64,000 nt of DNA from a virus (lineage: Duplodnaviria; Caudoviricetes): the IMG/VR virus record IMGVR_UViG_3300020576_005257, positions 32,001 through 96,000 of that record; one strand, 5' to 3'. Under the pieces are notes generated by a model. The model saw nothing but the letters and a program-made list of their open reading frames with translations. It was not told where the DNA came from and did not search any database. Shown one piece after another: positions 3,585 to 32,390 of the stretch. Numbering within the stretch: position 1 is the stretch's first letter; every line of letters starts with the position of its first letter. Both the position numbers and the translations under genes were made by a program.

Positions 3585-3928
3585 AATATATGTTTAGTGC
3601 TTCTAATCCTGATTCTTCGATACCCGTGAACTTTGACTTTCCTCTTTGTGGTTTGGAAAATGACATTCCTGATAAACTATTTTTAGTAGTAAGAATGCCC
3701 AATTTTCTAGCTACCAAAGCTCATGATCATAAGATCATGCTTCCTTGTTTTCAAAGCGAGGAGCTAGGAAAAGATTATGTAGCCAACGAGTATCCAAGAC
3801 ATCAAGAACAATTTCACTTTACTGAAGTTAGTTTTGAAGATGCAAGACAAATCGCAAAAAACTTAAAACAAACAGTAGCATTGTTGGTATATAACAAAGA
3901 AGGTCAAACAATCCATTATGTCAAGTAA
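3581..3928 (+). CDS. hypothetical protein
   Basis: 115-aa ORF overlapping both neighbours. Confidence 0.6.
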   Translation: MKYMFSASNPDSSIPVNFDFPLCGLENDIPDKLFLVVRMPNFLATKAHDHKIMLPCFQSEELGKDYVANEYPRHQEQFHFTEVSFEDARQIAKNLKQTVALLVYNKEGQTIHYVK

Positions 3929-4265
3929 AACAGAAAAAGCACCATTACTACAGAAGAAGAAAGATAACTTCTATACTCTTCTATACAATCCAGGATTCGG
4001 TCCTCTCTTCCCAGAACAAGACACTTTGTTTTTGTTTAAGGAAGCTATGGAAAGTAATGAGCCTGATTATGCCCATATTTATGAAGAAATTCAGCCTGGT
4101 GATCAGATCCTGGTAGAGCTGGATTTAGAGCATGAGTTTGTTAAGCAAATTCTGGCAACTGGTGCTGAAAGCTTTGTGAACTATGTTCCAACTGTCTATG
4201 TCTTTAATACTGCTAAATCTCCTGATCCTGAGATTAATCTAAAAGCTGCAAGGAGATGCGTTTAA
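3918..4265 (+). CDS. hypothetical protein
   Basis: 115-aa ORF. Confidence 0.6.
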   Translation: MSSKTEKAPLLQKKKDNFYTLLYNPGFGPLFPEQDTLFLFKEAMESNEPDYAHIYEEIQPGDQILVELDLEHEFVKQILATGAESFVNYVPTVYVFNTAKSPDPEINLKAARRCV

Positions 4266-13213: not shown

Positions 13214-13999
13214 ATGTATAACTTCCACTTAGTAGGAGCCGGGTCACTAGGTAGTGGCATCGCAATTGAAATCTCTCGCCGTCTTGCAGCTCTAACATGG
13301 CCAGCAAAGCTTGTTATTTACGATGATGATACAGTTGAAGAACGGAATATCTTCTCTCAAGATTTTCTTCCTTCTGACATTGGTAAAGCTAAAGCAGAAG
13401 CAGTAGCTGAGAAATGTGCTCAATACAACTTTGTGGAAGTTGAGTGGCAAAAGGTCCGAGTTGTTGAAGATAATATCAACAAGATTATGGAACTTGATCC
13501 ATTATCAATTATTATTGATGCAGTAGATAATATTGAAGCTCGCCACTTGCTTTGGTACCACACCCTTGCTACAGGTGTTCCTGTTATGCATATGGGAATG
13601 ACCCCAGAAGGAGCTGGTTTAATCAGTTGGACTTGTGAAACACATCATGATAGTTTCAATTTAAGTCCTATGAATATGACTGCTGAAAGTATTAAGCAGC
13701 TTACTTCTGCTCATGACAATAAAATGCCACCCTGCGAATTAAATGGTTTTAGATCTTTGATTTTGAATACCGTACTAGCAGGAGTAAATTCGTTATTTAT
13801 TGCTATTGGTAAAGATTCTTTAAAAGAAATCCAAATTGATGGTGAGCTTCAGGAGTCTCCTGGCACTCTCACTACTTGGAATACTCACATGAGGGGATTT
13901 GAACTTAATCCTCAAATTACTGCTGTAGTGCCTTGGCCAAAGAGTGAAGAGGAACTCTTTATCCTAGAAGCTCAAAGAATGGCTTTAGCAAATGCATAA
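13214..13999 (+). CDS. ThiF/MoeB/E1-family adenylyltransferase
   Basis: LVGAGSLGS nucleotide loop, IYDDDTVEERNIFSQDF, IGKAKAEA, IIDAVDNIEAR. Candidate thioester Cys in PPCE; no Zn-binding CxxC pairs. Confidence 0.9.
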   Translation: MYNFHLVGAGSLGSGIAIEISRRLAALTWPAKLVIYDDDTVEERNIFSQDFLPSDIGKAKAEAVAEKCAQYNFVEVEWQKVRVVEDNINKIMELDPLSIIIDAVDNIEARHLLWYHTLATGVPVMHMGMTPEGAGLISWTCETHHDSFNLSPMNMTAESIKQLTSAHDNKMPPCELNGFRSLILNTVLAGVNSLFIAIGKDSLKEIQIDGELQESPGTLTTWNTHMRGFELNPQITAVVPWPKSEEELFILEAQRMALANA

Positions 14000-16574
14000 T
14001 ATTGATCCACGGTTAGTAACTGATTTAGTTGCAGCTGTAAAACATAACTACGAACATAGAGGCTTACCCATGGCAAAAAAAGAAAATACAACTACTGAAC
14101 AAGTTATTGATAACACAGAGGAAAAAGTAATTATTCCTCCTGGGGATCAAGAAGCTGATACTCAAGAAGAAGTAGCCGTTGCTACTATTGATAAGAAGAA
14201 GGAAGAAGATTTAGGTGAAGTTTTTCCAAACGAAACTAATGTTTTAGTTGTTAGTCCTGGTTTAACTGATAAACATAAGTCTTGTCCATTTGGTGTAGTG
14301 AAATCTCATCACTATACTAATAATGGCGCATATCCTCCAGCCCTCCGGTATAAAATTTCATTCTTCCAGAACGAAGTTGAAGATTTAGTCGAATTTTTTG
14401 CGACTGAAGTTTATGACTTACAACGTATTCTTTCTGAAGATGTTCAAGTAGGGGATACTGCTTATCATAAACAGTCTGGAAAAGTTCTGAATATTACTCG
14501 TGTTACTGTAATTAACAATGAGGATAGAGCATTTGGTTGGTGGCGAGATGGAGTTACTGAAAAGTGTGAACATGTTTCAGTAAAAGATCTTTATCCACTT
14601 ATCAATTCCTTTACTGATCTTACTCAAAGAGGAAAAGTTCAACAAAGTGCTAAAGCTCCTAATACTTCAGCTTTGTTTACTTTGAACAACTCTAGTCCAT
14701 CTAAGGATTCAAGTAGTCAGAGTAGAATTGGTTATGGTGGAAGTTCTTCTAGTTCTGGTTCTGCATACTCTAGTACTAAAACTGGAATTCCAGTTATTGA
14801 TAATCATACTACTAGTAAAGATCCTATCTTAGTTGAAATCGTAGGTGGCGGTAAGTTTACTATTCAACTTACTCCTAAAGAACTTTTAAATGCAACAAAG
14901 GTTCTTGACTTTGAAATCATTGAATGCGGGGGAGATGATAATGTCTCTAAAGATGTTGTCAAACTTATCCTACCATTAGAACGGGCTAGATTTAGTAAAA
15001 CTACCAAAGAGGTACTTTGCTGTGCTTTTGATGCAACTAACGAGTATATGCAAACTATGGGCTTTGGTAAGCTTGGTTTTGCCGCACGAACTTGGTATAA
15101 AGCTCATCCTAAAACAGTCAGTAGTGGCCTACCAGCAGCGTTTACATTTAGTACTCTAAATGAACTAGTTGCTCCTTATGGCTTAGGTATTAGCCGAATC
15201 TTTATCAAGAAGGGGCTAGCTGCTTGGGAAGATACTAAAGCTTGGGAAGAGATTCTCGGAGTTAATCCTGCTGCATCTATGGATAAAACAGTATCTAACG
15301 CTGATTTTATTGATATGATGGGTGGGCCAGAAATGGCAGCTATGGCTGGTTATAATGTTAATGACTGGAGGTTGGAGTATGTAGATAATGTTCCTTCCGA
15401 TATTCCAAGAGTCGGTATGGCTGGTGCTAGTGGTGGATTTGCTTCTGGTGGGGGTCATGCTAGTTTCTACGAGCCCCGTCAACCCATGACAAATTGGACG
15501 ATGGCCTTACAATACGACAGGATTGAAAACTGCAATTGGAAAGGAGTTCCTCCAGTATTTGAATATGCTGATGGAGATTTTGTTCTGAATCTTGATATTG
15601 CTGAATGTCTTGATGTCAATGGAAAGAGACTCAAAGTTTCTGTCTATGACAATATGTCTATTGGACCAGATCCTAAAATTGGTTATTGGTGGGATCCTCC
15701 AACCTACAAAAGCTACACCCCGGCATCAAGCTCACATGGCGGGGGTCAGTCTCACTACAACTATGAAGAGTTTATGGGGAGCGACACAGAGCGTCCTAAA
15801 GGATCTCTTCCTTTAGGTGTGGAAAAAAAAAATCTAATAGACAAGAAAGGAAACTCCTCAGGGAGCAGCGGCGGATCAATAGCAGGAAACAGGAAGCTGA
15901 GCGAATGGATATCAAGCCGCAGCGACGAGGCAGAAGGTGTCGCAAGAATTCTCGCTAGTTTGACCCCTGGTGCTGATGAGGAACTGTCTATAATTCAAAA
16001 TGCTCTTTCTTATGACTCTATAAAAAAGATTGTTAAAACTCCTGATAAGCAGCCATTTTGGAAACACTCCAAAATGGCCCTTAAAAGGACATCTATTATC
16101 AATGCTGTAAAGTCAAGAAATAATCCTCAACTTGAATACATAGGATTGTTTACAGCTGCACTTGGTTATAATTTAGATTCATCAATTGATTGGGAATACT
16201 CTGATTTTCATTATGAGAAAAGAAAAGTTGACGTAATTGTTGATAAATTACTAATTGCATCTAAAAAGTTTGAATTTATTCAATGGTTTGATCTTTTAGT
16301 TGAATCTGATATTAACTCTGGTATAACCATGATTCAAGAGTTGGAAGGTGGTCTTGTCACCTTCCTTGAACTTATTCAAGATGGTGCTACTAGAGCTTTA
16401 ACTGATGTTCAAATTGAAGAAATGTTTATGATTGATCTTGAACCAATCATGGCCCTTCTTCATAAAGCTACTGTAGTAGAAAGAGCTGTTGTTCTTCTAC
16501 GATTAGCAGAACAGGAACCAGAAGAGATTATACTTTTCATGTTAACTCTCTTCATTCTTTTTGCATACGTATAA
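13992..16574 (+). CDS. 860-aa multidomain protein: SH3-like barrels, Ser/Gly linkers, possible Cys-His peptidase-like core, helical C-terminus
   Basis: VQVGDTAYHKQSGKVLNITRV..FGWW (SH3/YodC-like); EVLCCAFDATNEY and GGGHASFY; low-complexity linkers. Confidence 0.45.
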   Translation: MHNIDPRLVTDLVAAVKHNYEHRGLPMAKKENTTTEQVIDNTEEKVIIPPGDQEADTQEEVAVATIDKKKEEDLGEVFPNETNVLVVSPGLTDKHKSCPFGVVKSHHYTNNGAYPPALRYKISFFQNEVEDLVEFFATEVYDLQRILSEDVQVGDTAYHKQSGKVLNITRVTVINNEDRAFGWWRDGVTEKCEHVSVKDLYPLINSFTDLTQRGKVQQSAKAPNTSALFTLNNSSPSKDSSSQSRIGYGGSSSSSGSAYSSTKTGIPVIDNHTTSKDPILVEIVGGGKFTIQLTPKELLNATKVLDFEIIECGGDDNVSKDVVKLILPLERARFSKTTKEVLCCAFDATNEYMQTMGFGKLGFAARTWYKAHPKTVSSGLPAAFTFSTLNELVAPYGLGISRIFIKKGLAAWEDTKAWEEILGVNPAASMDKTVSNADFIDMMGGPEMAAMAGYNVNDWRLEYVDNVPSDIPRVGMAGASGGFASGGGHASFYEPRQPMTNWTMALQYDRIENCNWKGVPPVFEYADGDFVLNLDIAECLDVNGKRLKVSVYDNMSIGPDPKIGYWWDPPTYKSYTPASSSHGGGQSHYNYEEFMGSDTERPKGSLPLGVEKKNLIDKKGNSSGSSGGSIAGNRKLSEWISSRSDEAEGVARILASLTPGADEELSIIQNALSYDSIKKIVKTPDKQPFWKHSKMALKRTSIINAVKSRNNPQLEYIGLFTAALGYNLDSSIDWEYSDFHYEKRKVDVIVDKLLIASKKFEFIQWFDLLVESDINSGITMIQELEGGLVTFLELIQDGATRALTDVQIEEMFMIDLEPIMALLHKATVVERAVVLLRLAEQEPEEIILFMLTLFILFAYV

Positions 16575-16587
16575 AAGAAAATAAAAA

Positions 16588-16619
16588 CCATAGTAGCTAG
16601 TATTTCCTAGCTACTATGG
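16588..16619. terminator. perfect 13-bp inverted repeat between the E1 operon and the transcription module
   Basis: CCATAGTAGCTAG-TATTTC-CTAGCTACTATGG. The A-tract upstream gives a U-tail only on the minus strand. Confidence 0.55.
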
Positions 16620-16758
16620 AGTATAATCTTTAAATGCAAATGTTACCTGTGGCTCTTCACTTATTAACTCGTGGTTTGTTAGCTTTAACAATTTTCCTTG
16701 AAAGTCATCTTTCTCAAAAAGGAAATTTTCCCAAAATTTGATTCTTAGTTTCTGATTT

Positions 16759-17223
16759 ATGAATCACTCTAAGATAGATTTAGAAATTCTATTAAAGATT
16801 TCTGAGATTACTGGGAAGAAGTTTTTCTCTCCCAATTCCTCCAGACTGGAAGAATGTAGAGATCAAATTTTTGATCACTTAATTGATCTTTATTTGGATA
16901 GTAAAAAAACTGGTTTTAAATTATCTGAGTCTTATTGTTGGAAGGTTGCTATAAATCAAGCTTGTACTTGTTATCGAAAGATTAATAAAAGATCTTTTGT
17001 AGGTAATCTAGATTACCTAGTTGCTTCGTATCCTACAGAAAACTCTCTACTTGATCAAATTCACTTATCTATCTTAGCTAATAGTAATGACATAGATGGT
17101 GAAATAATTAATTTGTTAGCTGAAGGATACAAAAGAAAAGAAATTTGTAAAGAATTGAAGATAGTACCAAGTACCCTTAATACTAGGATTGATAGGAATA
17201 GGGGTACAAAATGGAAACTATAA
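16759..17223 (+). CDS. ECF-type sigma-factor-like protein
   Basis: Region-2-like LSESYCWKVAINQACTCYRK (cf. FSTWLYRIARNxxIDxxRK) and region-4 HTH EIINLLAEGYKRKEICKELKIVPSTLNTRIDR. Confidence 0.7.
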   Translation: MNHSKIDLEILLKISEITGKKFFSPNSSRLEECRDQIFDHLIDLYLDSKKTGFKLSESYCWKVAINQACTCYRKINKRSFVGNLDYLVASYPTENSLLDQIHLSILANSNDIDGEIINLLAEGYKRKEICKELKIVPSTLNTRIDRNRGTKWKL

Positions 17224-18587
17224 TCTACATTGGTGGGGAAATTGCTATCAAGAATTGTCCAACACATATTGCTCAGCAATTAAAGTTTCAAGCTACTTTA
17301 CCCAACCCTAAATACTATATGTGGGAAGCTAAAGCTTCCAAGAATAGTTGGTATAAAGATAATGTCTTACAACCTGAGAGAAACTATGTATACTGGAGGG
17401 AGAGTAAAGGTAATTTATATTTACCCAGAGGTATGTGGGATGCTGTTCTTTCTCTTTTACCAAATGCTAAAATTGTATCTTTACTAGTAGACCCCAAACC
17501 AGTTTCTCCCTTCCAGTTTAATGGTAAGTCATGGTATGGTCAAGCAGAAGCAGTAGACTCTGCATTACAACATAATTTTGGTTATGTACTAGGTCCTACT
17601 GGAAGTGGTAAAACATCTATAGGAATCCAAATTGCATGTAAACTTGGTTTAACTACTTTATTTATGGTTCATACTGATGCTTTATTACAGCAAGCTTATG
17701 AAAGAGTAGAAAAGTTTACTGGGTATACTCCTGGTTTAATAGGTGGTGGTAACTGGAATGTTAAAGATTTTACTATTGGTACCTTTCAAACCATATATAA
17801 AAAAGATTGTAGTTCTATTAAGAACAGCTTTGGCTTGGTAATTGCTGATGAATTTCATCATATGCAAGCTGAAACCTTTTTTGCAGCCGTTAGAAAGTTT
17901 AACTCTTTACATGCTTATGGTTTAACAGCTACTGATACTGGTAAGATGAAGTATATCAACTTGGCTCTTGGTCAGAAAGTAGCTGAAGTTGATAGAAAAG
18001 GTTTAGTTGAAGCTAAAACTATTTTGGAGGCTGAAGTATATGTAATCAAAACAGGATATAAAACTAAAAAAGAATATGAGAACTACGATCTTGCAAAGTT
18101 ATATACTGAGTTAGCTTCCTCTCCCAAAAGAAATAGTTTTGTTCTTGATCTTATAAAGAGCATACAGCCTGGAAGAAGAACTGTTATTGCTTCTCATAGA
18201 ATTGATCAACTGGATTGGTTTTATGAGCAATTAAAAGAATTTAATCCTGTATTATATCATGGAAAATTAAAAACCAAACAAAAAAAAATCTCTTTTGATA
18301 GAATGCAGAATGATGATGATAATCGTATAGTTCTAACTACTGTTCAGATTATTCAAGAAGGTTTTGATGCCCCCCATTGGGATCAATTAGTTATGGCTAC
18401 TCCTATTGGTGGGAGAGATGGCGTAGAACAACTTATTGGTAGAGTTGTTAGGAAGTCAGAAGGTAAGATGACTCCAAGAGTATTTGATCTGTTAGATAAT
18501 TCAATCTTAACAGAAACATGGCTTAACAATAGACTAAATAGATACGAGAAACTAAATGCAAAAGTCCACTTCGACAAAACGTTTTGA
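17211..18587 (+). CDS. superfamily 2 helicase (XPB/UvsW-like)
   Basis: GPTGSGKT, DEFHH, GLTAT, EGFDAP and QLIGRVVR motifs. Confidence 0.92.
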   Translation: METIIYIGGEIAIKNCPTHIAQQLKFQATLPNPKYYMWEAKASKNSWYKDNVLQPERNYVYWRESKGNLYLPRGMWDAVLSLLPNAKIVSLLVDPKPVSPFQFNGKSWYGQAEAVDSALQHNFGYVLGPTGSGKTSIGIQIACKLGLTTLFMVHTDALLQQAYERVEKFTGYTPGLIGGGNWNVKDFTIGTFQTIYKKDCSSIKNSFGLVIADEFHHMQAETFFAAVRKFNSLHAYGLTATDTGKMKYINLALGQKVAEVDRKGLVEAKTILEAEVYVIKTGYKTKKEYENYDLAKLYTELASSPKRNSFVLDLIKSIQPGRRTVIASHRIDQLDWFYEQLKEFNPVLYHGKLKTKQKKISFDRMQNDDDNRIVLTTVQIIQEGFDAPHWDQLVMATPIGGRDGVEQLIGRVVRKSEGKMTPRVFDLLDNSILTETWLNNRLNRYEKLNAKVHFDKTF

Positions 18588-19815
18588 ACCACTAACTTCT
18601 ATCCGTAGAATCAAGGATTATGAATTGCCTAAAACAATTCAACTTGCTGGGGAGGATACACCTATTCCAAAAAGACTTAGAAGAAAAGACATTTCTTATA
18701 CCTATATCACTGGTCCTGATGGAGCTGTTAAGCTTACTAGAACCTGTTGGATTACTCAGTCTTTATCTCATCTACTTAACGCTCAACGATTTAATGTTGA
18801 TGGCGAATTGTATGATAAAGAGAATCCTCATGGTTCCTTGACAACTTATGTTAATGAATTAATTCTAGCTAAAGAATGTGCTTTATCAACTATTGCTAGA
18901 ATGATTAAAGATGATGTTCTTAAAGACAAGAAAGGCCCAGGATTCATGGCTTTTGTACAATCTAATGAGAACGTTCCTGTAGGAAGTATTTTAATTACAG
19001 AAAGAACTTTACGGACTTTTCTAGTTCCACACAACAAAAATTGGAAGGATGCAAGTAAGGTCATCGTTACTAGGTTTCCCAACTTAGGTCCTAATACTAC
19101 AATTGAACTTAATTTATTAGTTCAAAAAGCTCCTAACAATTCCTATAAAGAGAATGCTTTAACTGAGCAATTAAAAGTGTTCTTGGATGAGAATATCGGT
19201 GTTCTTGAAGATGCAGAAGATTTAATGGATCCAGTATTCATTCACCCAGACATTTTGAAAGATTGTTTACAGGGTGATGGAGACGGAGATACTGTTTATT
19301 CTGTTATTTCAGAACAGAATGGAGTAAATTTTACTGACCTATCTCTTCTTAGAAATCCTGGCGAAGATCAGTTATTTGAAGATGAAATTGAGAAAGCTTT
19401 ACAAAAAGCTTCCAGATATGACGGTAAAACTATTTCTAATTATTTACCTCAACTATTTGATCAGTCTCCTATTGGTCCAGCCACCTATGCCATTAGAATG
19501 CAGGTTCACCAATTAGCTAAATCTCTTAAAGGAACTTGTGATCACCCAATGCATGAAGCTTGGAAACAGGTTGCTCCTTGGGCTATTGAGTTGATTGAGT
19601 TTGTTATGGATATTCGCAAAGGAGATTATACTACTGAGCAAATCCAAGATAATTTAAACCAAATTTCTGCGTGGAGTATAGCAATTAAAAAGGCTAAAGA
19701 AGATGGTTGTTGGTTTGCTAAAACTGTAACTACTAGTGATATTGGTTCCATAGAAGATTTTATAGAAACATTCCCAACACTTCAAGACTATGCAGATACC
19801 ATTTATGTTCAATGA
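18556..19815 (+). CDS. two-barrel RNA polymerase catalytic (beta-prime-like) subunit, highly reduced
   Basis: VIVTRFPNL (cf. VLLNRAPTL) and FIHPDILKDCLQGDGDGDTVY (cf. [20 protein letters not shown]); DxDGD at 19276-19290. Confidence 0.8.
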   Translation: MQKSTSTKRFEPLTSIRRIKDYELPKTIQLAGEDTPIPKRLRRKDISYTYITGPDGAVKLTRTCWITQSLSHLLNAQRFNVDGELYDKENPHGSLTTYVNELILAKECALSTIARMIKDDVLKDKKGPGFMAFVQSNENVPVGSILITERTLRTFLVPHNKNWKDASKVIVTRFPNLGPNTTIELNLLVQKAPNNSYKENALTEQLKVFLDENIGVLEDAEDLMDPVFIHPDILKDCLQGDGDGDTVYSVISEQNGVNFTDLSLLRNPGEDQLFEDEIEKALQKASRYDGKTISNYLPQLFDQSPIGPATYAIRMQVHQLAKSLKGTCDHPMHEAWKQVAPWAIELIEFVMDIRKGDYTTEQIQDNLNQISAWSIAIKKAKEDGCWFAKTVTTSDIGSIEDFIETFPTLQDYADTIYVQ

Positions 19816-20045
19816 AACATTTCATTAGCTCGTCATCCAAACCTAATTGTGCTTGTGGTAAAGAAGAACTTAATATATTTAGTTCTGAAGCTAGTCCTAT
19901 AGGGCTTTCAAATGATCTAGTTGATTTAAAGGAAGGATTTGATCCTTTCATTGTTAAATCTTTTTGTTCATGTGCTACAATACATACCTTCAAAGTTTTT
20001 GAAGGCAAGGAAAATCTCACTCCAATCTTCGTTAAACAACCATGA
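19812..20045 (+). CDS. small CxC...CxC Zn-ribbon-like protein between the RNAP subunits
   Basis: PNCACG...FCSCAT; ATGA overlaps with both RNAP-like genes. Confidence 0.55.
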   Translation: MKHFISSSSKPNCACGKEELNIFSSEASPIGLSNDLVDLKEGFDPFIVKSFCSCATIHTFKVFEGKENLTPIFVKQP

Positions 20046-21472
20046 GCGAACTCTTCAAAGTTAATTGTTCTCCGTATCTAGGCAGTGTTGAACAGCTGTC
20101 TCCTGAAATTGTTACTCTTTTATCTACCAGAGGAGATGTACAAGTTGCATCTTCTCCTAAAATAGTAACACCTATTCTTACTTATGACGAAGATGGGGAT
20201 TTTACATTTACAAAGGCTAGTACTATTGTAAGTAAAGCAATCCCAGAAAATAAGTATTACTCAGGATCTAAGGAATATTCTCCTGAACGGATTGCTGATG
20301 TAATTTACTCTAGAACACAAAAGAATCTAGAATCTTATCCTTTTCTACCTACCTACAAAAATGGAGATAAAACATCTTATCATCCATTAGCTCTTTTAAA
20401 TTATTACGATTTAGTCCGGTTACAACCAAGCCCCGAACTTGCTACTAGACTTATGAGAGAAGATTTCAATGGTCAAGGTAAACTAAAGGCTAGTAGTTTA
20501 GACAAGTTAAACCAAAGATTTTTTCACTTTTTTAAGAAAGAACTGGATCTTTATTCAGTTCCAAAAAGAGAAATTGGTACTTTCTGTAATATAGCTTATA
20601 CAGGAAACTTCAATCGACTAGCCTGGCATCTTGGTTTTGGAATGGCAAACTGCATTCCAAGAGATAGAATTGCTAGAGAGGCAAGTAGTCTTAAATCTGC
20701 TGAACGATTTCTAAATCCAGTTGAAGTACCTTTTGGTGATTTTCCTAAATTCTGTGGTCCATATATTACTATGCTTCGTGTAGCTTTTATAGCTACTGAA
20801 ACAAGTATGCTTGACTCAGGAGATCTCATGCCAAGTGCTTTTCCTAGAATTGCTTGTAAGCTATCCAAAATTCACAAAATTAAGGATCTAAAAGCTGCAC
20901 AAGAACAGTTTGGTTCCTTAAATATATCTAAACAAGCATCTAGAGCTGGTATTGAGTTGACTCATGATATTCTGGAAGAGTATGACGAAACTCATTTGCA
21001 TCCTGGTGCTATAAGATTTGTATTTCCAGGTGGTCTTAAAGTTAATACTCACTGCTTAGATACTAAAATCCAAGCTTATACTAATGATCAAGAAGAAGTT
21101 GACTTGTTGCTTGATATTAGAAGTATTACTTCTAAAGGTGCTGCTGTACTTTTAGCTATGCAGGATCCAAGATTTGCTGGAAAAGATATGAATTTTGAGG
21201 AGTTACGTCAAGTTATTCCTCAACTCAAAAAACAACAAGTTAGGGTAGGTGCTATGAAGTACTCTGCCTACGTTGGCTGGTTACCAGTGATGAGACCTGG
21301 CCAACGCTATACTGATTTTAGCAAGCCTACTAATGACATTCCAAATGACATTATTGCTAAAGCTATTATGAAACAACGATTTGACATCCCAGAAGAGCTT
21401 GAAAAGCACTATGCTGAGATGGTTCAATATGTCTCCTCCCTTACGAGTGAAATCAATGCTATCCAAAGTTAA
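20042..21472 (+). CDS. two-barrel RNA polymerase beta-like subunit, highly reduced
   Basis: Motifs in canonical beta order: LRVAFIATETSMLDSGDL (cf. VAFMPWNGYNFEDSIL), PGAIRFVFPGGLKVN (cf. GDKMAGRHGNKGV), DQEEVDLLLDIRSITSK (cf. GTPVDIVLNPLGVPSR), AYVGWLPVMR (cf. VTVGYMYMLK). Confidence 0.7.
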   Translation: MSELFKVNCSPYLGSVEQLSPEIVTLLSTRGDVQVASSPKIVTPILTYDEDGDFTFTKASTIVSKAIPENKYYSGSKEYSPERIADVIYSRTQKNLESYPFLPTYKNGDKTSYHPLALLNYYDLVRLQPSPELATRLMREDFNGQGKLKASSLDKLNQRFFHFFKKELDLYSVPKREIGTFCNIAYTGNFNRLAWHLGFGMANCIPRDRIAREASSLKSAERFLNPVEVPFGDFPKFCGPYITMLRVAFIATETSMLDSGDLMPSAFPRIACKLSKIHKIKDLKAAQEQFGSLNISKQASRAGIELTHDILEEYDETHLHPGAIRFVFPGGLKVNTHCLDTKIQAYTNDQEEVDLLLDIRSITSKGAAVLLAMQDPRFAGKDMNFEELRQVIPQLKKQQVRVGAMKYSAYVGWLPVMRPGQRYTDFSKPTNDIPNDIIAKAIMKQRFDIPEELEKHYAEMVQYVSSLTSEINAIQS

Positions 21473-22661
21473 CGTTACCACTGCTCTTCGTCTTGCCCAA
21501 CGGTGCTATAATCTTCAACAACTAACGGGTGAAAGATATGTTCTTAACTTGTTAGGCCCTGCTGGACAAGGAAAAACTGCACTTAATAATGATCATAGAG
21601 ATCATTTGGCTAATTTATTAGTAAATCGTACAGTTGCTTTGAAGTCTTATAGACTTAATCAATCAGATCCTACCGATCTTAAGGGAGTTCCTATGTATCA
21701 TGAAAATGAAGATGGACTCAAAACTTGTGAATGGGCAGTTCCTCAAATCTTTCCAGTTATTGGTTCTCCTCATTCTGGAAAGGCTGACTTTACTTTATTC
21801 TTATTTGATGAGTTTAATCAAGCTGCACAATCTATGCAGAACTTGGCTGCTAATGTTATTGATCAAGTAGTCGGAGATCAGACTCTTGATTATACACGTT
21901 ACCAGATTATCCTTGCTGGAAATAGGACTGAGGATGGTGCTGCTGTTTATGCTTTGCCTACTAATTTGAAAACTCGTCTTATTACAGTACAACTTGAAAA
22001 TACTTTAGATGATTGGATTAAATGGGCCACTCAAAATAATATTCATCCTGGTATTATTGGTTATCTAAAGAATTTTAGTATAGCTTTCAATGATACTACT
22101 TCAACTTCTGAGTATTCATCCCATCCTAACCCTAGAACCTGGCATCGTCTTAGTAGTGATATTACTTTCCATGACGATTGGGCAGCTGATGAAGATTCAA
22201 GAATCATGGCTATAGGTCTTCTTGGTGAGAAGGTTGGCAGTGCTTTTTATTCCTTCTTCCAGAAGTTCTCAGCTGAGTTTTCTATTGACAAAATCATGGA
22301 ACAAGGTGGTAAAGTAGAGATGAATTACAAAGAACTTGAGTTTGTATATACTATTATAGTTGAACTAGCTTATAGGGTAACTAAAATTCTACAAACTGCT
22401 ATGGAAAGTTTGTCACCTGATGATAGAAAAGATAGTGAGGCTGTATCCTCAATATTAACTCATCAAGATTACCAACATATTCTTAATGTTTATGATTGGC
22501 TCCATTCAGCTGATTTTCCTAAACCAATTAAACTTCTTCTAGGCACCTTTATTAATCAAACTGAGTATAATATGCTTATGAGATTAATTAGATTAGATCC
22601 CAAACTTGACAAAGCTGGTATTCAATATTCAGAGATAACTAAGCAGCTTCATGCTATCTAA
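21456..22661 (+). CDS. MoxR-like AAA+ ATPase
   Basis: GPAGQGKT, DPTDLKGVP, FLFDEFNQA, ILAGNR, NLKTRL and PNPRTW. The ATG at 21456 (MLSKVNV) is a more plausible start than 21381. Confidence 0.88.
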   Translation: MLSKVNVTTALRLAQRCYNLQQLTGERYVLNLLGPAGQGKTALNNDHRDHLANLLVNRTVALKSYRLNQSDPTDLKGVPMYHENEDGLKTCEWAVPQIFPVIGSPHSGKADFTLFLFDEFNQAAQSMQNLAANVIDQVVGDQTLDYTRYQIILAGNRTEDGAAVYALPTNLKTRLITVQLENTLDDWIKWATQNNIHPGIIGYLKNFSIAFNDTTSTSEYSSHPNPRTWHRLSSDITFHDDWAADEDSRIMAIGLLGEKVGSAFYSFFQKFSAEFSIDKIMEQGGKVEMNYKELEFVYTIIVELAYRVTKILQTAMESLSPDDRKDSEAVSSILTHQDYQHILNVYDWLHSADFPKPIKLLLGTFINQTEYNMLMRLIRLDPKLDKAGIQYSEITKQLHAI

Positions 22662-22667
22662 AAAACA

Positions 22668-23882
22668 ATGATTCCTGAATTTCGAGCAGAAATAAACTAT
22701 CCAGAAGCTAAGCCTGAGTGGAAACAGGCTCTTCTGGATTGTGTTGAGACAGATTTGTCTCAACTTATTCGTAATGCCCCTTGGGTTAGTATGATTCTAG
22801 CCAACTTAGAAGTCATAGGTATTACTTCTAGACTAGCTAATATATCTGTTAGAAGGCTTTCTTTAAATTGTTGGCCTAAAGCTGAAGGAAATGAGGCAGG
22901 TACTTGTTACTATGAGTACCCAAAACCAGAGAGATATACTTTGTTAAATCACTTAGTAACTCACTTAGTTTTCAAACACACCTCTATCCCAGAAGGATTG
23001 GATGACGGTTTAGTAGTAATTAGTCAGGATGCTACTGTTAACAACGCCATTAAGAATAGTGCTAATTCAAAGCTAAGTAGCTTCCCAGGACATATAACAA
23101 CTAATAGTGCAGGAGATACGTTAATTATTGGTGAGTTTGAAATTAAAATTCCCCAAATTGATTCTTTAGATTGGAAGGAACTTTATAACATTCTTTTTGA
23201 CCATGGTCTTGATACTACTGGTTGGGAATCTGATATAGAAAATGATCCTAATATTCTCCCTGAAGAGATAGAGAAGTTTGAGGATAAGGTCATTTCTGTT
23301 CTAACTCAAATGGAAGACAAGATCCCCGATCCTTATAAGAGACATTTATGGAAAATGTTAACTCCTAAGGTTACTTGGGCTGACAAAATAAGAATGATTC
23401 TTAATAGTATTGTTGGTAGAACTGATTTCTCCTACAATCCTAATCCTAGAAAAATTCATATTGGTATTCTTCCAACTATCACTAAACCTGCTGGTGGTAC
23501 AGTGTTTCTTGCTTTTGATACTTCAGCTAGTATGAGCAGAGAAGAAATTGAACAGGGCATTGCAGAAGCTAGACAAATCCAAAAACAATTTGGCTGTGCT
23601 ATGGAAATCATAGTTTGTGATCAAGAAGTTACTAAGATACATAGCTTTGATGGTTCTTCTGAACTTGGTTGGGCAGACTTAGAAATGCCTGGTCAAAGAG
23701 GAACAAGTTTTGTTCCAGTGTTTGATTACATAGCTGAAACTAAAGGACCAGCACCATCAGTTCTGGTATACTGTACTGATCTGGAAGGACACTTTCCTGA
23801 TAAAGGACCCAGTTATCCAGTTATTTGGTTAACCAAGAATCAAAATCATCCAGTGCCATTTGGTAAAATAGTACTAGTCTAA
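22668..23882 (+). CDS. DUF2201-type metallopeptidase-like plus vWA domain protein (MoxR partner)
   Basis: vWA MIDAS DTSASMS, GTSFVPVF, YCTDLEG, YPVIW. The N-terminal HExxH position reads HLVTH. Confidence 0.85.
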   Translation: MIPEFRAEINYPEAKPEWKQALLDCVETDLSQLIRNAPWVSMILANLEVIGITSRLANISVRRLSLNCWPKAEGNEAGTCYYEYPKPERYTLLNHLVTHLVFKHTSIPEGLDDGLVVISQDATVNNAIKNSANSKLSSFPGHITTNSAGDTLIIGEFEIKIPQIDSLDWKELYNILFDHGLDTTGWESDIENDPNILPEEIEKFEDKVISVLTQMEDKIPDPYKRHLWKMLTPKVTWADKIRMILNSIVGRTDFSYNPNPRKIHIGILPTITKPAGGTVFLAFDTSASMSREEIEQGIAEARQIQKQFGCAMEIIVCDQEVTKIHSFDGSSELGWADLEMPGQRGTSFVPVFDYIAETKGPAPSVLVYCTDLEGHFPDKGPSYPVIWLTKNQNHPVPFGKIVLV

Positions 23883-24658
23883 TGTCCCATAAAAGACCTA
23901 AATATAATCCTAAAGCCCAGACTAAAGTTCCAACTTTAGGCTTCTATAGGAAGGTTCAAAACTATGAACAGAATCAGATTAAATCTGGTTCTGTTCTCAT
24001 AGACAGAGTTTTATCATTAAAGAAAGGGGAAAGTTTACTTATTAAGACTGAACCTTATTCTGGAGGGTCAGCTGTATGTTTTGAATATGCCAGCTATTTC
24101 ACTAAAAATTTTGACGGGTACTGTTTATACATAGACTGCAATGATTCCTTCTTACCTTCCAGAACTTCTGATATTGATTTAGAAAAACTTATCCATATTA
24201 GGCCTAATTCTTCTCAACAGGTAATTGATGTTATAAAGGAATTTGCTGTTTTAGATAAGGAGTTTCTTATTATCTTAGACAATCCTTTCTTATTAAAAGA
24301 TGGTCCAACTATTAGTAATTTTCTTGTTACTATTAGAAAGATTCTTCCACATTGTACTATTATAGCTACTGAAAGAATATTAAAGAAACATACAGATGTT
24401 TGGAATAAAGTTTGTACTTTAGGTTTTAAACAAAGACATTACGTAGAAAGAGATTTGATTGGTCATACTATATCTCTGAAAATAGGTTTAGAAGAAATAG
24501 TACATTACTTATCTTATAAGTATGGTAGATTATCAAAAGTTTATGAGCATATGATTTTGGATATTGAAGAAAACAATAAAACCAAAGGTGATGTTTTTGA
24601 ATTTGACGGCTATGTAGTTAGAGGTTTCTGGTCAATGTTGAAAACTATTGAGATGTAA
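23882..24658 (+). CDS. degenerate RecA/RadB-like protein
   Basis: IKSGSVLIDRVL, EPYSGGSA (Walker A without Lys), CLYIDCNDSF, IDLEKLIHIRP, LIILDN. Confidence 0.65.
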   Translation: MSHKRPKYNPKAQTKVPTLGFYRKVQNYEQNQIKSGSVLIDRVLSLKKGESLLIKTEPYSGGSAVCFEYASYFTKNFDGYCLYIDCNDSFLPSRTSDIDLEKLIHIRPNSSQQVIDVIKEFAVLDKEFLIILDNPFLLKDGPTISNFLVTIRKILPHCTIIATERILKKHTDVWNKVCTLGFKQRHYVERDLIGHTISLKIGLEEIVHYLSYKYGRLSKVYEHMILDIEENNKTKGDVFEFDGYVVRGFWSMLKTIEM

Positions 24659-27648: not shown

Positions 27649-28698
27649 ATGATTCATTCAGTTGGTAATGTAAAACATATTGATCCTGATTTCTGTATTC
27701 AGAAATATAAGACTGTCATAGAAAAGCTTGGTAATAGAACAGGACCAAATGTTCAATGGATTAAAGAATATGAAGATGATACTAAAATGCGAGTTCCTAA
27801 TAGGAATTTTACTGATGGTATTCCTACTTTTAACCAAGTAGCATCTGATTATACAGAAGGTCTTTGTTTTGTAGGTGGTCGAGCAAACGCTGGTAAATCC
27901 ACATTTCTAATTAATCTTCAAAAAGGTGCCCTTGAAAATAATGATAACGTGGTTATCATTGATTTATCTTTAGATGATCCACCTAAGAAAAGGTATCAAC
28001 AGTATATAGCTGCTATTAGTGGGCTTAGATATACTGAAGTAGCTAATCCAGCTATGCTGGATCCTAGAAAGCAGGATATATTAGAAAAAGCCAGAAATCA
28101 ATTTTTTGATTGGTTAAAATCTGGAAGATTGATTAGTCTTCATAATATTGAAAAATTTTCAGAAGGCAAGCAACTTAATCTGAGAGATTATAGAACTCAA
28201 GTTCACTTGATGAGAAAAATACGAGAAGTCTTTCCAGATTCTAAGATAGCTTTATTTGTTGATGCTTGGAATAATGTAGATATTACTGCTGGAAGACCTG
28301 GATCCGAAATTCTACAAGGTAATGAGGCACTTAACTATCTAAAAGGTGGTTCTGAAGATAATGAGATTATGGGTTTCTACTCAGCTCATATTAGAAAAAC
28401 TACTGAAAAGAGAATTACTATTCAGGACATTAAAGGAACTAGTAATATTGAGTATGATGCTGTTCTTGCATTAATTTTAAGAAATGAACAAAGAGAGAAT
28501 CAACTTGATGAGCCCTTAGTTTATGAAATGAATGATAATGAAATTCCAATCTTGACTATTGATGTATCTAAGAATAAGTCATCTGATTGGGATTATCCCC
28601 TTTTCCATCCAGCTAATACTGGTGCTTGTCAGTTATTTACTTTGAATCCTTTAGAATATAGGCAAATTTATGATGTATATAGAGGCAAAAGAAAATGA
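27649..28698 (+). CDS. DnaB-like (SF4) replicative helicase, ATPase domain only
   Basis: GGRANAGKST, DLSLDD, LFVDAWN, SAHIRK, DIKGTSNIEYDA and SKNK motifs. Confidence 0.85.
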   Translation: MIHSVGNVKHIDPDFCIQKYKTVIEKLGNRTGPNVQWIKEYEDDTKMRVPNRNFTDGIPTFNQVASDYTEGLCFVGGRANAGKSTFLINLQKGALENNDNVVIIDLSLDDPPKKRYQQYIAAISGLRYTEVANPAMLDPRKQDILEKARNQFFDWLKSGRLISLHNIEKFSEGKQLNLRDYRTQVHLMRKIREVFPDSKIALFVDAWNNVDITAGRPGSEILQGNEALNYLKGGSEDNEIMGFYSAHIRKTTEKRITIQDIKGTSNIEYDAVLALILRNEQRENQLDEPLVYEMNDNEIPILTIDVSKNKSSDWDYPLFHPANTGACQLFTLNPLEYRQIYDVYRGKRK

Positions 28699-29754: not shown

Positions 29755-30759
29755 ATGGACGCTAGACAAGTACTTATTTCTAATTTTGGAGAACCGATTG
29801 AGGTTTCTGGCCCAGAATTAAAATTTGTTTGTACTCAATGTGGGCATAGGTCTTTAACTGGATCTATGCTCACTGGTGTTTATTATTGTTTTGTTTGTGA
29901 GTATGGAGTAGGCCAAAAGCCACTTTTTGTTAATTCTAATTACAAAAAAAGAAAGATTGATTTTGATAAGCATCTTGAAATTACTAAGTGGCTTAAGGAT
30001 AATTTAACCCTTAGTAACTCTCACCGAAACTACTTAAAGTCAAGGGGTATTTATAATCCAGACTTTTTTGGTTTGAAAACTATTCCCACTAGGCTTGAAT
30101 TAAGGATGAAAAAGCATTTTAGTGATACTGAATTACTAGACAGTGGATTTTTCAAACCAGGATTCCATACAGACATAACTGGATGGCCTTGTTTGAAACA
30201 TAATAGAATTTTTATTCCTATTATGAATCACAATAAGCTCTGTGGCTGTAAAACTAGATGCGACTTTAGAGAAGATCTTCAAGAAGATGTAAAATATGCT
30301 TTTCCTACTGGAAGTAGGGCTAATGATTTTGTATCTTATTATCCAACTGGGTCTGATGACTTATTGATTAGTGAGGGTGATTTTAAAGTTATGGCTGCCA
30401 GAGAGTGTGGATATAGTTCTATTTGTAGCTCTGGTATTAATGGTACTGCTGCTTTAAGAAAATTCTTTTTTAATAGTCGTACAAAATATAAAAGAAGATT
30501 TATTATCTTTGATACTGAGAAATCAGATAGTAAAATTCTTTCTAGGGTACAAGCCTACAAACTCTCTGAAAGTTTAGATCATACTGATGTAGCTATTGTT
30601 ATTTTACCTAGACTTAAACCTAATACTAAAATGGACTTAGATACATATTTATTGACTTTTCCTGGAAGATTGAATGATTTACTAGAAGAAGCTTGGTATA
30701 ATAGACAAGAAACTCTTGATAGGGAATATGAATTGACTTATGGCCACATCTCGCACTAA
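29755..30759 (+). CDS. DNA primase (Zn finger plus TOPRIM)
   Basis: CTQCGH...YYCFVC, YLKSRGI, RIFIPI, KY, ISEGDFK, IIFDTE, KMDLD. Confidence 0.88.
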   Translation: MDARQVLISNFGEPIEVSGPELKFVCTQCGHRSLTGSMLTGVYYCFVCEYGVGQKPLFVNSNYKKRKIDFDKHLEITKWLKDNLTLSNSHRNYLKSRGIYNPDFFGLKTIPTRLELRMKKHFSDTELLDSGFFKPGFHTDITGWPCLKHNRIFIPIMNHNKLCGCKTRCDFREDLQEDVKYAFPTGSRANDFVSYYPTGSDDLLISEGDFKVMAARECGYSSICSSGINGTAALRKFFFNSRTKYKRRFIIFDTEKSDSKILSRVQAYKLSESLDHTDVAIVILPRLKPNTKMDLDTYLLTFPGRLNDLLEEAWYNRQETLDREYELTYGHISH

Positions 30760-31705: not shown

Positions 31706-32390
31706 AACTCTCTTTATAAATATGTTTTGTGGGCCAGGAGGCTCCAAAAGCACAGTAGCAGCTGGAGTATTCTTTACTCTCAAAACTATGAATATTAATT
31801 CTGAATATGTTTCAGAATATGCTAAAGACTTGGTTTGGGCTGAACGTCAGGGTGATCTTAGATGTCAACCCTATGTTACTGGTAAACAATTTTATCGTCA
31901 ATATAGAGTAGACGGTAAAGTAGATTTTGCTGTAGTAGATTCTCCTATTATTCTTGGAATTGCTTATGGTGGTTTTGGGGCTACTGCAAATTGGCAAGCT
32001 GCTGCTTTAGATCATTTCAACATGTTTGAAAATCTTAATATAGTATTAAATAGAAATCTGGAAGATCATCCTTATAATCCAAAAGGAAGACTACAAACTC
32101 AAGAAGAAGCTGTAGCCAAAGACAAGGAAATTGAAGATATGTTAATTCATAAAAACATTCCTTCAGTCAAGATGGCACCTATGCCTATTCAAGATACTAT
32201 TGAAAATATTACCCAACTAGCATTATATACCAAATATACTGAACCAGGTAAAAGTTATTATGGTATTTACTATGAACAAGCTGGACAGAAACTATTTACT
32301 GATTTCACAAATGATAAAAACAATTTGGATTTCTTAATTGAATCAGCTCCCGAAGATTTTAAAATGAAGGTACAAGAGTGGCTAAAATAA
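31689..32390 (+). CDS. P-loop ATPase/kinase (NadR/AAA_28-like)
   Basis: INMFCGPGGSKST, VSEYAKDLVW, VVDSP, GRLQT. Confidence 0.75.
   Translation: MSENNKTLFINMFCGPGGSKSTVAAGVFFTLKTMNINSEYVSEYAKDLVWAERQGDLRCQPYVTGKQFYRQYRVDGKVDFAVVDSPIILGIAYGGFGATANWQAAALDHFNMFENLNIVLNRNLEDHPYNPKGRLQTQEEAVAKDKEIEDMLIHKNIPSVKMAPMPIQDTIENITQLALYTKYTEPGKSYYGIYYEQAGQKLFTDFTNDKNNLDFLIESAPEDFKMKVQEWLK

Follow-up and report, generated by a model that had tools for sequence, protein, structure and literature searches.

Two very small RNA polymerase-like subunits form a conserved unit beside lineage-variable sigma-like and helicase genes in an uncultured large phage

We analysed a 64,000-nucleotide (nt) stretch of a virus genome assigned to Caudoviricetes (IMG/VR record IMGVR_UViG_3300020576_005257, positions 32,001 to 96,000; hereafter the window) and concentrated on five consecutive genes at its positions 16759 to 21472. 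Two of the encoded proteins, of 419 and 476 amino acids (aa), are very reduced and probably catalytically competent homologues of the two large subunits of RNA polymerase (RNAP), beta-prime and beta, as judged from sequence motifs and structural models. What related phages conserve is the unit formed by these two genes and the gene of a small protein with four cysteines between them; the sigma-like and helicase genes that precede them in the window vary from lineage to lineage. On balance we lean towards a conserved mini RNAP core with variable and functionally separate neighbours. The source record is a single contig of 234,927 bp with an estimated completeness of 95%. The five open reading frames (ORFs) lie on the same strand, overlap consecutively by 13, 32, 4 and 4 nt, and have the coordinates given by the first-pass annotation, a reading of the window that had proposed a self-contained transcription module:

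16759..17223, plus strand: P0004, 154 aa, probable extracytoplasmic function (ECF)-type sigma-like protein
17211..18587, plus strand: P0005, 458 aa, superfamily 2 (SF2) helicase of the XPB/Rad25 - UvsW - D10 - RadD group
18556..19815, plus strand: P0001, 419 aa, beta-prime-like catalytic subunit, assigned by motifs and fold
19812..20045, plus strand: P0003, 77 aa, Cys4 protein, probably a zinc-binding accessory subunit
20042..21472, plus strand: P0002, 476 aa, beta-like catalytic subunit, assigned by motifs and fold

The AlphaFold2 model of the beta-like protein (pLDDT 88, pTM 0.80) returned 319 Foldseek matches at E<=1e-3, and the best 50 of these 319 were all Rpb2 or beta chains. Structural alignment with VIA-align (Z 16) placed about 370 residues on positions 165-1104 of Rpb2 and 122-1244 of Escherichia coli beta. 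The second barrel of beta/Rpb2 is marked by two basic residues eight positions apart, followed by VD and then R or K, and the phage protein carries this pattern: a basic residue at 325 (R or K) stands eight before the invariant K333, as K1065 does before K1073 in E. coli, VD at 353/354 corresponds to VD 1094-1095, and K365 to R1106. These residues are spaced by 8, 20 and 12 aa, compared with 8, 21 and 12 in E. coli. Upstream of the pattern, SMLDSGD (255-261) corresponds to NFEDS of E. coli beta (811-815), and a further motif, RPGQR, follows at 418-422. Profile alignment with hhalign placed residues 340-364 on E. coli beta 1081-1105. We found 18 relatives of this protein.

In the beta-prime-like protein, two blocks are invariant across 32 aligned sequences, R173-x-P-N-L-G-P and G240-D-G-D-G-D245, with H-P ten residues ahead of the latter. 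E. coli beta-prime has NRAPTLH at 424-430, 34 residues before NADFDGD. A double-psi beta-barrel at about residues 127-254 was matched structurally to Rpb1/beta-prime, so that an RxPxLH-type motif and a barrel with a DxDGD metal loop, which together characterize beta-prime/Rpb1, are both present. All top Foldseek matches of the AlphaFold2 model (pLDDT 84) were Rpb1, NRPD1, bacterial beta-prime and the beta-prime piece of the AR9 non-virion RNAP (nvRNAP), and VIA-align superposed 305 residues on Rpb1 (Z 10.7). With hhalign, residues 226-249 (PVFIHPDILKDCLQGDGDGDTVYS) aligned to E. coli beta-prime 446-468 when the profile was compared with the catalytic region, a weak match (E 0.05); comparison of the profile with full-length E. 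coli RpoC was uninformative. The fold matches of the two proteins, together with conserved motifs at E. coli-like spacing, are the reason why we consider them probably competent for catalysis, and the folds and motifs bear out the earlier description of the pair as mini RNAP subunits.

Neither large subunit was detected by Pfam, PHROG, NCBIfam or PDB sequence models. Searches of the region and of both subunits with blastn and tblastn against 50,697 phage records gave no match, phmmer with either subunit as query yielded no meaningful PDB sequence, and PF00623 had no match in the genome at a threshold as loose as E 10. The beta-prime-like protein has 38 relatives in a set of 5.8 billion proteins, and an exhaustive HMMER search of 1.84 billion representative proteins yielded just 46. 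The members of this family are 61-595 aa long (101-457 aa for the confident ones, E<=1e-10) and all come from uncultured large phages; no Pfam or PHROG family was found in the ten most distant members checked. The mini RNAP family is invisible to annotation libraries, so phages of this kind are scored as lacking an RNAP. The 95%-complete genome holds one beta-prime-like and one beta-like gene, with no paralogues and no T7-type RNAP found.

The first-pass annotation had remarked that the subunits appeared too short for the full flap and clamp surfaces on which sigma regions 4 and 2 dock, and their dimensions agree with this. The flap segment of the beta-like protein measures 64 aa (261 to 325) compared with 251 aa in E. 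coli beta (814 to 1065); its model has a short strand-helix-strand stub at the flap position (272-300), and not the full-size flap, the SBHM insert that serves as docking site for sigma region 4 or TFIIB. In the beta-prime-like protein, 172 aa precede the RxPxL motif compared with 424 in E. coli beta-prime, and 174 aa follow the metal loop compared with 943. The model places one 32-residue helix (91-122) ahead of the barrel in place of the two-helix clamp coiled coil. These reduced lengths support the argument that the canonical docking surfaces for a sigma factor cannot all be there in full.

Between the two large subunits, most related loci have an ORF of 72-116 aa. In the window its 77-aa product has cysteines at positions 13, 15, 52 and 54, arranged as CxC(GK)...CxC and kept in five of six orthologues, and it matched no family. 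The two cysteine pairs are what stands of the zinc ribbon proposed for this gene. Residues 13-17 (CACGK; window 19848-19862) repeat the pattern with which the zinc-binding domain of E. coli beta-prime opens, CLCGK at 70-74. The mini beta-prime family has no conserved cysteine. From these sequences, the small protein may be the zinc-binding domain of beta-prime detached into its own gene, and we infer that it would supply a zinc module in trans to that subunit.

We compared 16 informative related loci by tblastn and profiles. In every one of them the beta-prime-like gene is linked to the beta-like gene, and the two are separate genes throughout. The sigma-like family lies directly upstream of beta-prime in three of the loci (L001, L002 and L022), which form the closest clade, and in L026 a sigma4 protein is encoded 7 kb upstream. 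A helicase homologue is found 1-3 kb upstream of beta-prime in 6/16. No close homologue of the window's helicase was found in the genomes of two relatives (94% and 85% complete); in one of them a different ResIII gene lies at a distance of 39 kb, and the other lacks any. Unlinking in related phages, which the first-pass annotation had named as an outcome that would speak against its module, is therefore largely the case for the sigma-like gene and about half the case for the helicase gene, and does not apply to beta-prime, the small gene and beta. The conserved unit consists of these last three, the sigma-like and helicase genes are lineage-variable, and the comparative evidence gives no support to a functional coupling of sigma and helicase with the mini RNAP.

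Other proteins recur at the same place. An unrelated, beta-rich family (A8; core of about 112-127 aa, motifs HxPxxGLISPxP, VKxGDxIQ and WNPP) is encoded at most about 0.7 kb upstream of beta-prime in eight lineages (L023:7642-7980, L025:7571-7951, L016, L017, L018, L021, L004 and L026) and is directly adjacent to it in three. This slot is the one held by the sigma-like gene in the window's clade. The A8 protein could be another RNAP partner; a distant copy (E 1e-6) lies in the window at 3918-4265, 14.6 kb upstream. An AAA_28 P-loop protein of about 190-240 aa recurs by the helicase gene or just upstream of beta-prime in L004, L005, L016, L023, L024 and L025, and there is none among the window's five genes. 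In L025 (9290-12551), an insertion with genes for a bpMoxR-type AAA+ ATPase, a 615-aa protein and a 119-aa protein separates the beta-prime-like gene from the beta-like gene. One locus, L021 (CAYLNC010000003.1), is a 34-kb contig with the RNAP pair that was binned in a 'Candidatus Saccharibacteria' metagenome-assembled genome; it is more likely a mis-binned phage contig than a hint at the host.

The first gene of the five had been read as an ECF-like sigma, a name that the protein taken alone does not sustain and that its family makes probable. It has an N-terminal helical domain and a C-terminal sigma4/LuxR-type helix-turn-helix (HTH), with a single close homologue in a large database, and all of its own matches are sub-threshold (HTH_7 at 22.6 bits, HTH_23, GerE, and SigZ at E 0.01). 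The L001 orthologue matches Sigma70_r4 with 31 bits, above the cut-off of 24.1, and the L002 orthologue matches the ECF model TIGR02937 over positions 10-128 (E 1e-4, below the cut-off), a span that includes region 2. An iterative profile search of all ORFs of the related loci added L022 (E 1e-7) and then the L026 protein, a Pfam Sigma70_r4 protein (E 9e-5). The best PDB match of a six-sequence profile (A6) was the ECF sigma SigL (6DV9 chain F, residues 66-168, regions 2.4-4.2, E 9e-7), followed by SigH, SigW and SigE; the profile contains the Pfam-annotated sigma4 protein of L026 and is somewhat biased by it. We consider it quite likely that the protein is a true ECF-type sigma.

That it is instead a small LuxR/GerE-type HTH regulator and no sigma, which would leave the module without an initiation factor, is unlikely in our estimate. 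Such a regulator would fit the generic HTH families among the protein's own matches below cut-off. It would also fit an earlier four-sequence profile, which found only LuxR-type HTH matches in the PDB, none of them significant, and of which the HTH alone aligned with the phage's canonical sigma in hhalign. It sits poorly with the L001 match that passes Sigma70_r4, with the region 2 span of the L002 match and, given the caveat of the L026 protein, with the match of the A6 profile to SigL. Compared by hhalign with the L004 and L005 proteins encoded upstream of beta-prime, the four-sequence profile revealed no relationship beyond the HTH.

A canonical sigma70/ECF gene lies elsewhere in the genome, outside the window (C1:20469-21017; 45 bits, above the TIGR02937 cut-off), and two relatives likewise carry sigma70/ECF-like genes far from their RNAP genes (G001:220880-222198 and G002:18089-18604). 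A complex prediction that combined the sigma-like family (A5) with residues 8-419 of the beta-prime-like and 1-421 of the beta-like protein (last 55 residues cut) scored 0.00 against a mark of 0.32, and speaks neither for nor against an interaction.

The second gene codes for a helicase with Pfam ResIII (3e-22) and Helicase_C (3e-11) domains, assigned to phrog_16, in which the SF2 motifs I, II and III read GPTGSGKT, DEFH and LTAT. Its best PDB matches were Sulfolobus XPBII (5e-24) and Archaeoglobus Rad25 (1e-16), then T4 UvsW (2e-8) and RadD. Of the label XPB-like, the SF2 membership and XPB/Rad25 as nearest solved relatives hold, whereas the protein is not an XPB orthologue: it scores 70.7 bits with the NCBIfam XPB model (NF045503), far from the equivalog cut-off of 610, and no RED motif follows motif III, where XPB carries it; the sequence reads LTATDTGKM. 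Relatives in 685 cultured-phage records, found by tblastn, share 23-27% identity over 82-93% of the length and include the T5-like 'helicase D10', the UvsW-type 'RNA-DNA and DNA-DNA helicase', and proteins of Thermus phage phiYS40 and of cyanophages. None of these named examples is known to carry its own RNAP. No other ResIII-type helicase is encoded in the genome.

The five genes do not stand alone. The overlapping or abutting chain runs on past the beta-like gene into an ATPase gene, its partner, p258 and further genes, and overlap alone therefore sets no limit to a five-gene module; tight packing is a genome-wide trait. The term 'self-contained' cannot be kept, as only beta-prime, the small gene and beta form a conserved unit. 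The named genes downstream are:

21456..22661, plus strand: ATPase, phrog_1297; the start at 21456 is probable and gives a 17-nt overlap with the beta-like gene
22668..23882, plus strand: DUF2201 protein (VWA-like domain and putative metallopeptidase N-domain), the ATPase's partner
23882..24658, plus strand: p258, 258 aa, RecA/KaiC-like, P-loop degenerate
27649-28698: DnaB-like helicase gene
29755-30759: primase-like gene

Among the related loci, the ATPase is a downstream neighbour in 12/16, DUF2201 in 11/16 and p258 in 9/16. The ATPase and DUF2201 genes are conserved downstream neighbours of the beta-like gene and are candidates only as parts of the polymerase. Where this pair is missing (L006 and L022), p258 comes directly after the beta-like gene; the protein (A7) has an EPYAGxTAL P-loop without the lysine, an hhhhD Walker-B-like strand and the look of a RecA/KaiC fold. 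Further replication-type genes nearby code for a DNA polymerase, an SbcD-like nuclease, an exonuclease and a ribonucleotide reductase. On the upstream side, a ThiF/E1-like gene and the large gene that follows it (555-886 aa; window 13214-16574, where the large product has 860 aa) lie 1-7 kb from the RNAP genes in seven of the 16 loci (L001, L002, L005, L006, L007, L022 and L024), so the E1 system travels with the region. The window has a GC content of about 33%, every gene of at least 90 aa lies on its plus strand (genes nested in longer ones left out), and Rfam and tRNA scans of it gave no matches.

Between the upstream pair and the sigma-like gene lies the strong inverted repeat that had been placed ahead of the five genes:

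16588..16619, plus strand: hairpin with a perfect 13-bp stem and a 6-nt loop, between the E1/p860 operon and the sigma-like gene

The repeat is real. It begins 14 nt past the stop codon of the 860-aa gene and folds at -23.3 kcal/mol (z = -6.7), and none of 200 shuffled sequences folded as well. The 235-kb genome has about 20 perfect hairpins of at least 10 bp, this one included. On the plus strand an A-tract precedes it, and the hexamer TATAAT follows directly (16622-16627). As a classical intrinsic terminator for the plus strand we rejected it, because the T-run is on the opposite strand. It is probably an operon boundary, either an RNA 3' end or a stabiliser, followed by a possible start region. 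Enrichment of 7-mers over 89 intergenic regions gave no clear phage-specific promoter consensus. The element AAAAAC-N5/6-TGG has 10 plus-strand copies, six of them intergenic and none at the mini RNAP operon, and a scan for sigma70-type promoters did no better than shuffled sequence (48 observed, 44 expected).

In the interpretation that we favour, the locus would be the front of a long, tightly packed early and middle operon in an uncultured phage of about 235 kb. The two large proteins would form a heterodimer with the active site between their double-psi beta-barrels. By homology, D241, D243 and D245 of the beta-prime-like subunit would hold the catalytic Mg2+, and R/K325, K333 and K365 of the beta-like subunit would contact the nucleoside triphosphate and the RNA 3' end. 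Host RNAP with one or more phage sigmas would express the early and middle genes, this operon among them, and the mini RNAP would then most likely read a subset or a later class of phage genes. The helicase would most likely be an enzyme of UvsW/D10 type with a part in replication and recombination, where it would work on branched DNA or R-loops, and the sigma-like protein would most likely redirect host RNAP or act as a regulator. A sigma that serves host RNAP, the alternative already raised in the first-pass annotation, fits at least as well as one that serves the mini enzyme, given the canonical sigmas elsewhere and the kin of the helicase in phages without an RNAP. A less favoured but serious possibility, limited to this sub-clade, is that the sigma-like protein gives the mini enzyme its promoter specificity. 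Opposite the long plus-strand blocks, the genome has a minus-strand block of 86 genes (C1:99308-196130). This block probably holds late or structural genes, a set that a phage-specific RNAP could naturally target.

The strongest competing explanation, which we regard as rather doubtful, is an integrated holoenzyme in which the sigma docks in a non-canonical way and confers promoter specificity, the helicase opens promoters, releases transcripts or recycles the enzyme, and the Cys4 protein has a structural role as a subunit. In the window, translational coupling links all five genes, and in L026 a sigma4 protein and a helicase are encoded upstream in one gene block. Several further observations favour this explanation and at the same time weigh against the reading of functionally separate neighbours. 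The sigma-like gene overlaps beta-prime by 14 nt in L001 and 23 nt in L002 and is separated from it by a 4-nt gap in L022, which suggests coupled expression. In clades that otherwise have mostly different neighbours, the helicase gene is again found on the same strand, 1-3 kb upstream. There are also precedents in the Rad25-like helicase of phiKZ-type phages (PMC7824862) and in the virion set of phage Arash (PMC10585845). Transcription by the mini enzyme is itself a prediction. The holoenzyme is opposed by the mini RNAP lineages themselves, most of which have no adjacent sigma-like gene and have an unrelated small protein in its place, and by the two relatives' genomes without a close helicase homologue. 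The docking elements for a sigma look absent or vestigial (the 64-aa flap segment and the single 32-residue helix), and many phages that have no RNAP carry a member of the helicase family.

We give only slight credence to a third explanation, in which the two-barrel enzyme is real but specialised and no general DNA-dependent transcriptase: it could make a particular kind of RNA, for example primers or an RNA with a regulatory or anti-defence function, or it could use RNA as its template in the manner of the QDE-1/RDR branch of the two-barrel superfamily. In its favour, the phage seems to work through host RNAP and a canonical sigma of its own, and the mini enzyme has been cut down to an extreme degree. 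The conserved genes around it, for an E1-like enzyme, an ATPase/VWA pair and a RecA-like protein, include no transcription factors. The best structural matches, however, are DNA-dependent Rpb2/beta and Rpb1/beta-prime chains, with no QDE-1/RDR chain among the best 50 of the 319 matches of the beta-like model; the motifs of the beta barrel follow the cellular beta pattern, and the phage has a primase. Replacement of the primase by the mini RNAP was rejected as unnecessary because a primase-like gene is present, as is a DnaB-like helicase gene. The remaining probability goes to other outcomes, an inactive enzyme included, and the sigma identity of the 154-aa protein is a separate question from all of these.

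If active, the pair would, at 895 aa (972 aa if the Cys4 protein is counted), rank with the smallest RNA polymerases of multisubunit type. With such a naturally minimal core one could ask what templated RNA synthesis requires of beta and beta-prime, and by what means a stripped core finds promoters. We know of no sigma factor that works without flap-tip and clamp-helix contacts. It is quite improbable, in our view, that an ECF sigma works here through a new kind of docking on a two-subunit RNAP of about 100 kDa without flap or clamp coil, with an XPB-like helicase providing ATP-driven opening or recycling. If it were true, bacterial sigma logic and TFIIH-like logic would meet on the smallest multisubunit-type core known. 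A sigma on a core without flap or clamp helices is where novelty would lie, and the comparative data give it no support so far. A literature search of limited coverage found no paper that describes a two-subunit phage RNAP of about 420 and 475 aa.

The nvRNAPs of phiKZ and AR9 consist of four beta/beta-prime pieces and a phage-specific fifth subunit, amount to nearly a full cellular core, usually occur beside a second set and use no sigma (PMC7598289, PMC7824862). Like them (PDB 7S00/7S01), the enzyme described here is a phage-encoded, divergent two-barrel enzyme, and the AR9 piece was among the top matches of the beta-prime-like model. In contrast, its large pieces are two and total 895 aa, there is a single set with a sigma-like neighbour, and sequence-level similarity is nil; split subunits, a fifth subunit and two sets are not what this genome holds. 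YonO of the Bacillus prophage SPbeta is a single-chain two-barrel RNAP of about 100 kDa (PMC5467207), which Iyer et al. placed with the RdRP-like enzymes that have no beta-barrel insert (PMC7824862). The total size of about 100 kDa and an equally stripped two-barrel core are shared with YonO. By its published description YonO is set apart from the phage pair, which has two subunits in the order beta-prime then beta, with the motifs and spacing of cellular beta; both barrels in one chain, as in YonO, were seen in none of the 16 loci.

The neighbouring proteins have known counterparts as well. The helicase shares its ResIII and Helicase_C core with T4 UvsW, T5 D10 and archaeal XPB/Rad25, and its position beside RNAP genes is atypical for UvsW and D10. 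The sigma-like protein resembles group 4 ECF sigmas such as Mycobacterium tuberculosis SigL (6DV9) in its size of about 155 aa and its two-domain layout. It differs from them in being very divergent, in passing no curated cut-off and in having its gene next to those of a non-canonical RNAP that seemingly lacks the usual docking surfaces. The combination of a phage-encoded RNAP, a phage sigma and a helicase encoded nearby is not new and has precedents in Arash and the phiKZ-type phages. In the latter, an SF2 helicase related to Rad25 is a neighbour of RNAP genes and co-occurs with them, and a RapA-like role has been proposed for it (PMC7824862). The virion of Salmonella phage Arash contains beta (Gp206), beta-prime (Gp216), a sigma (Gp10) and a helicase (Gp217) encoded beside beta-prime (PMC10585845). 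Arash and the phage studied here have in common a beta/beta-prime RNAP of their own, a phage sigma or sigma-like protein and a helicase gene next to beta-prime. Annotation treats the Arash subunits as ordinary beta and beta-prime, whereas those described here are less than half that size and invisible to sequence models.

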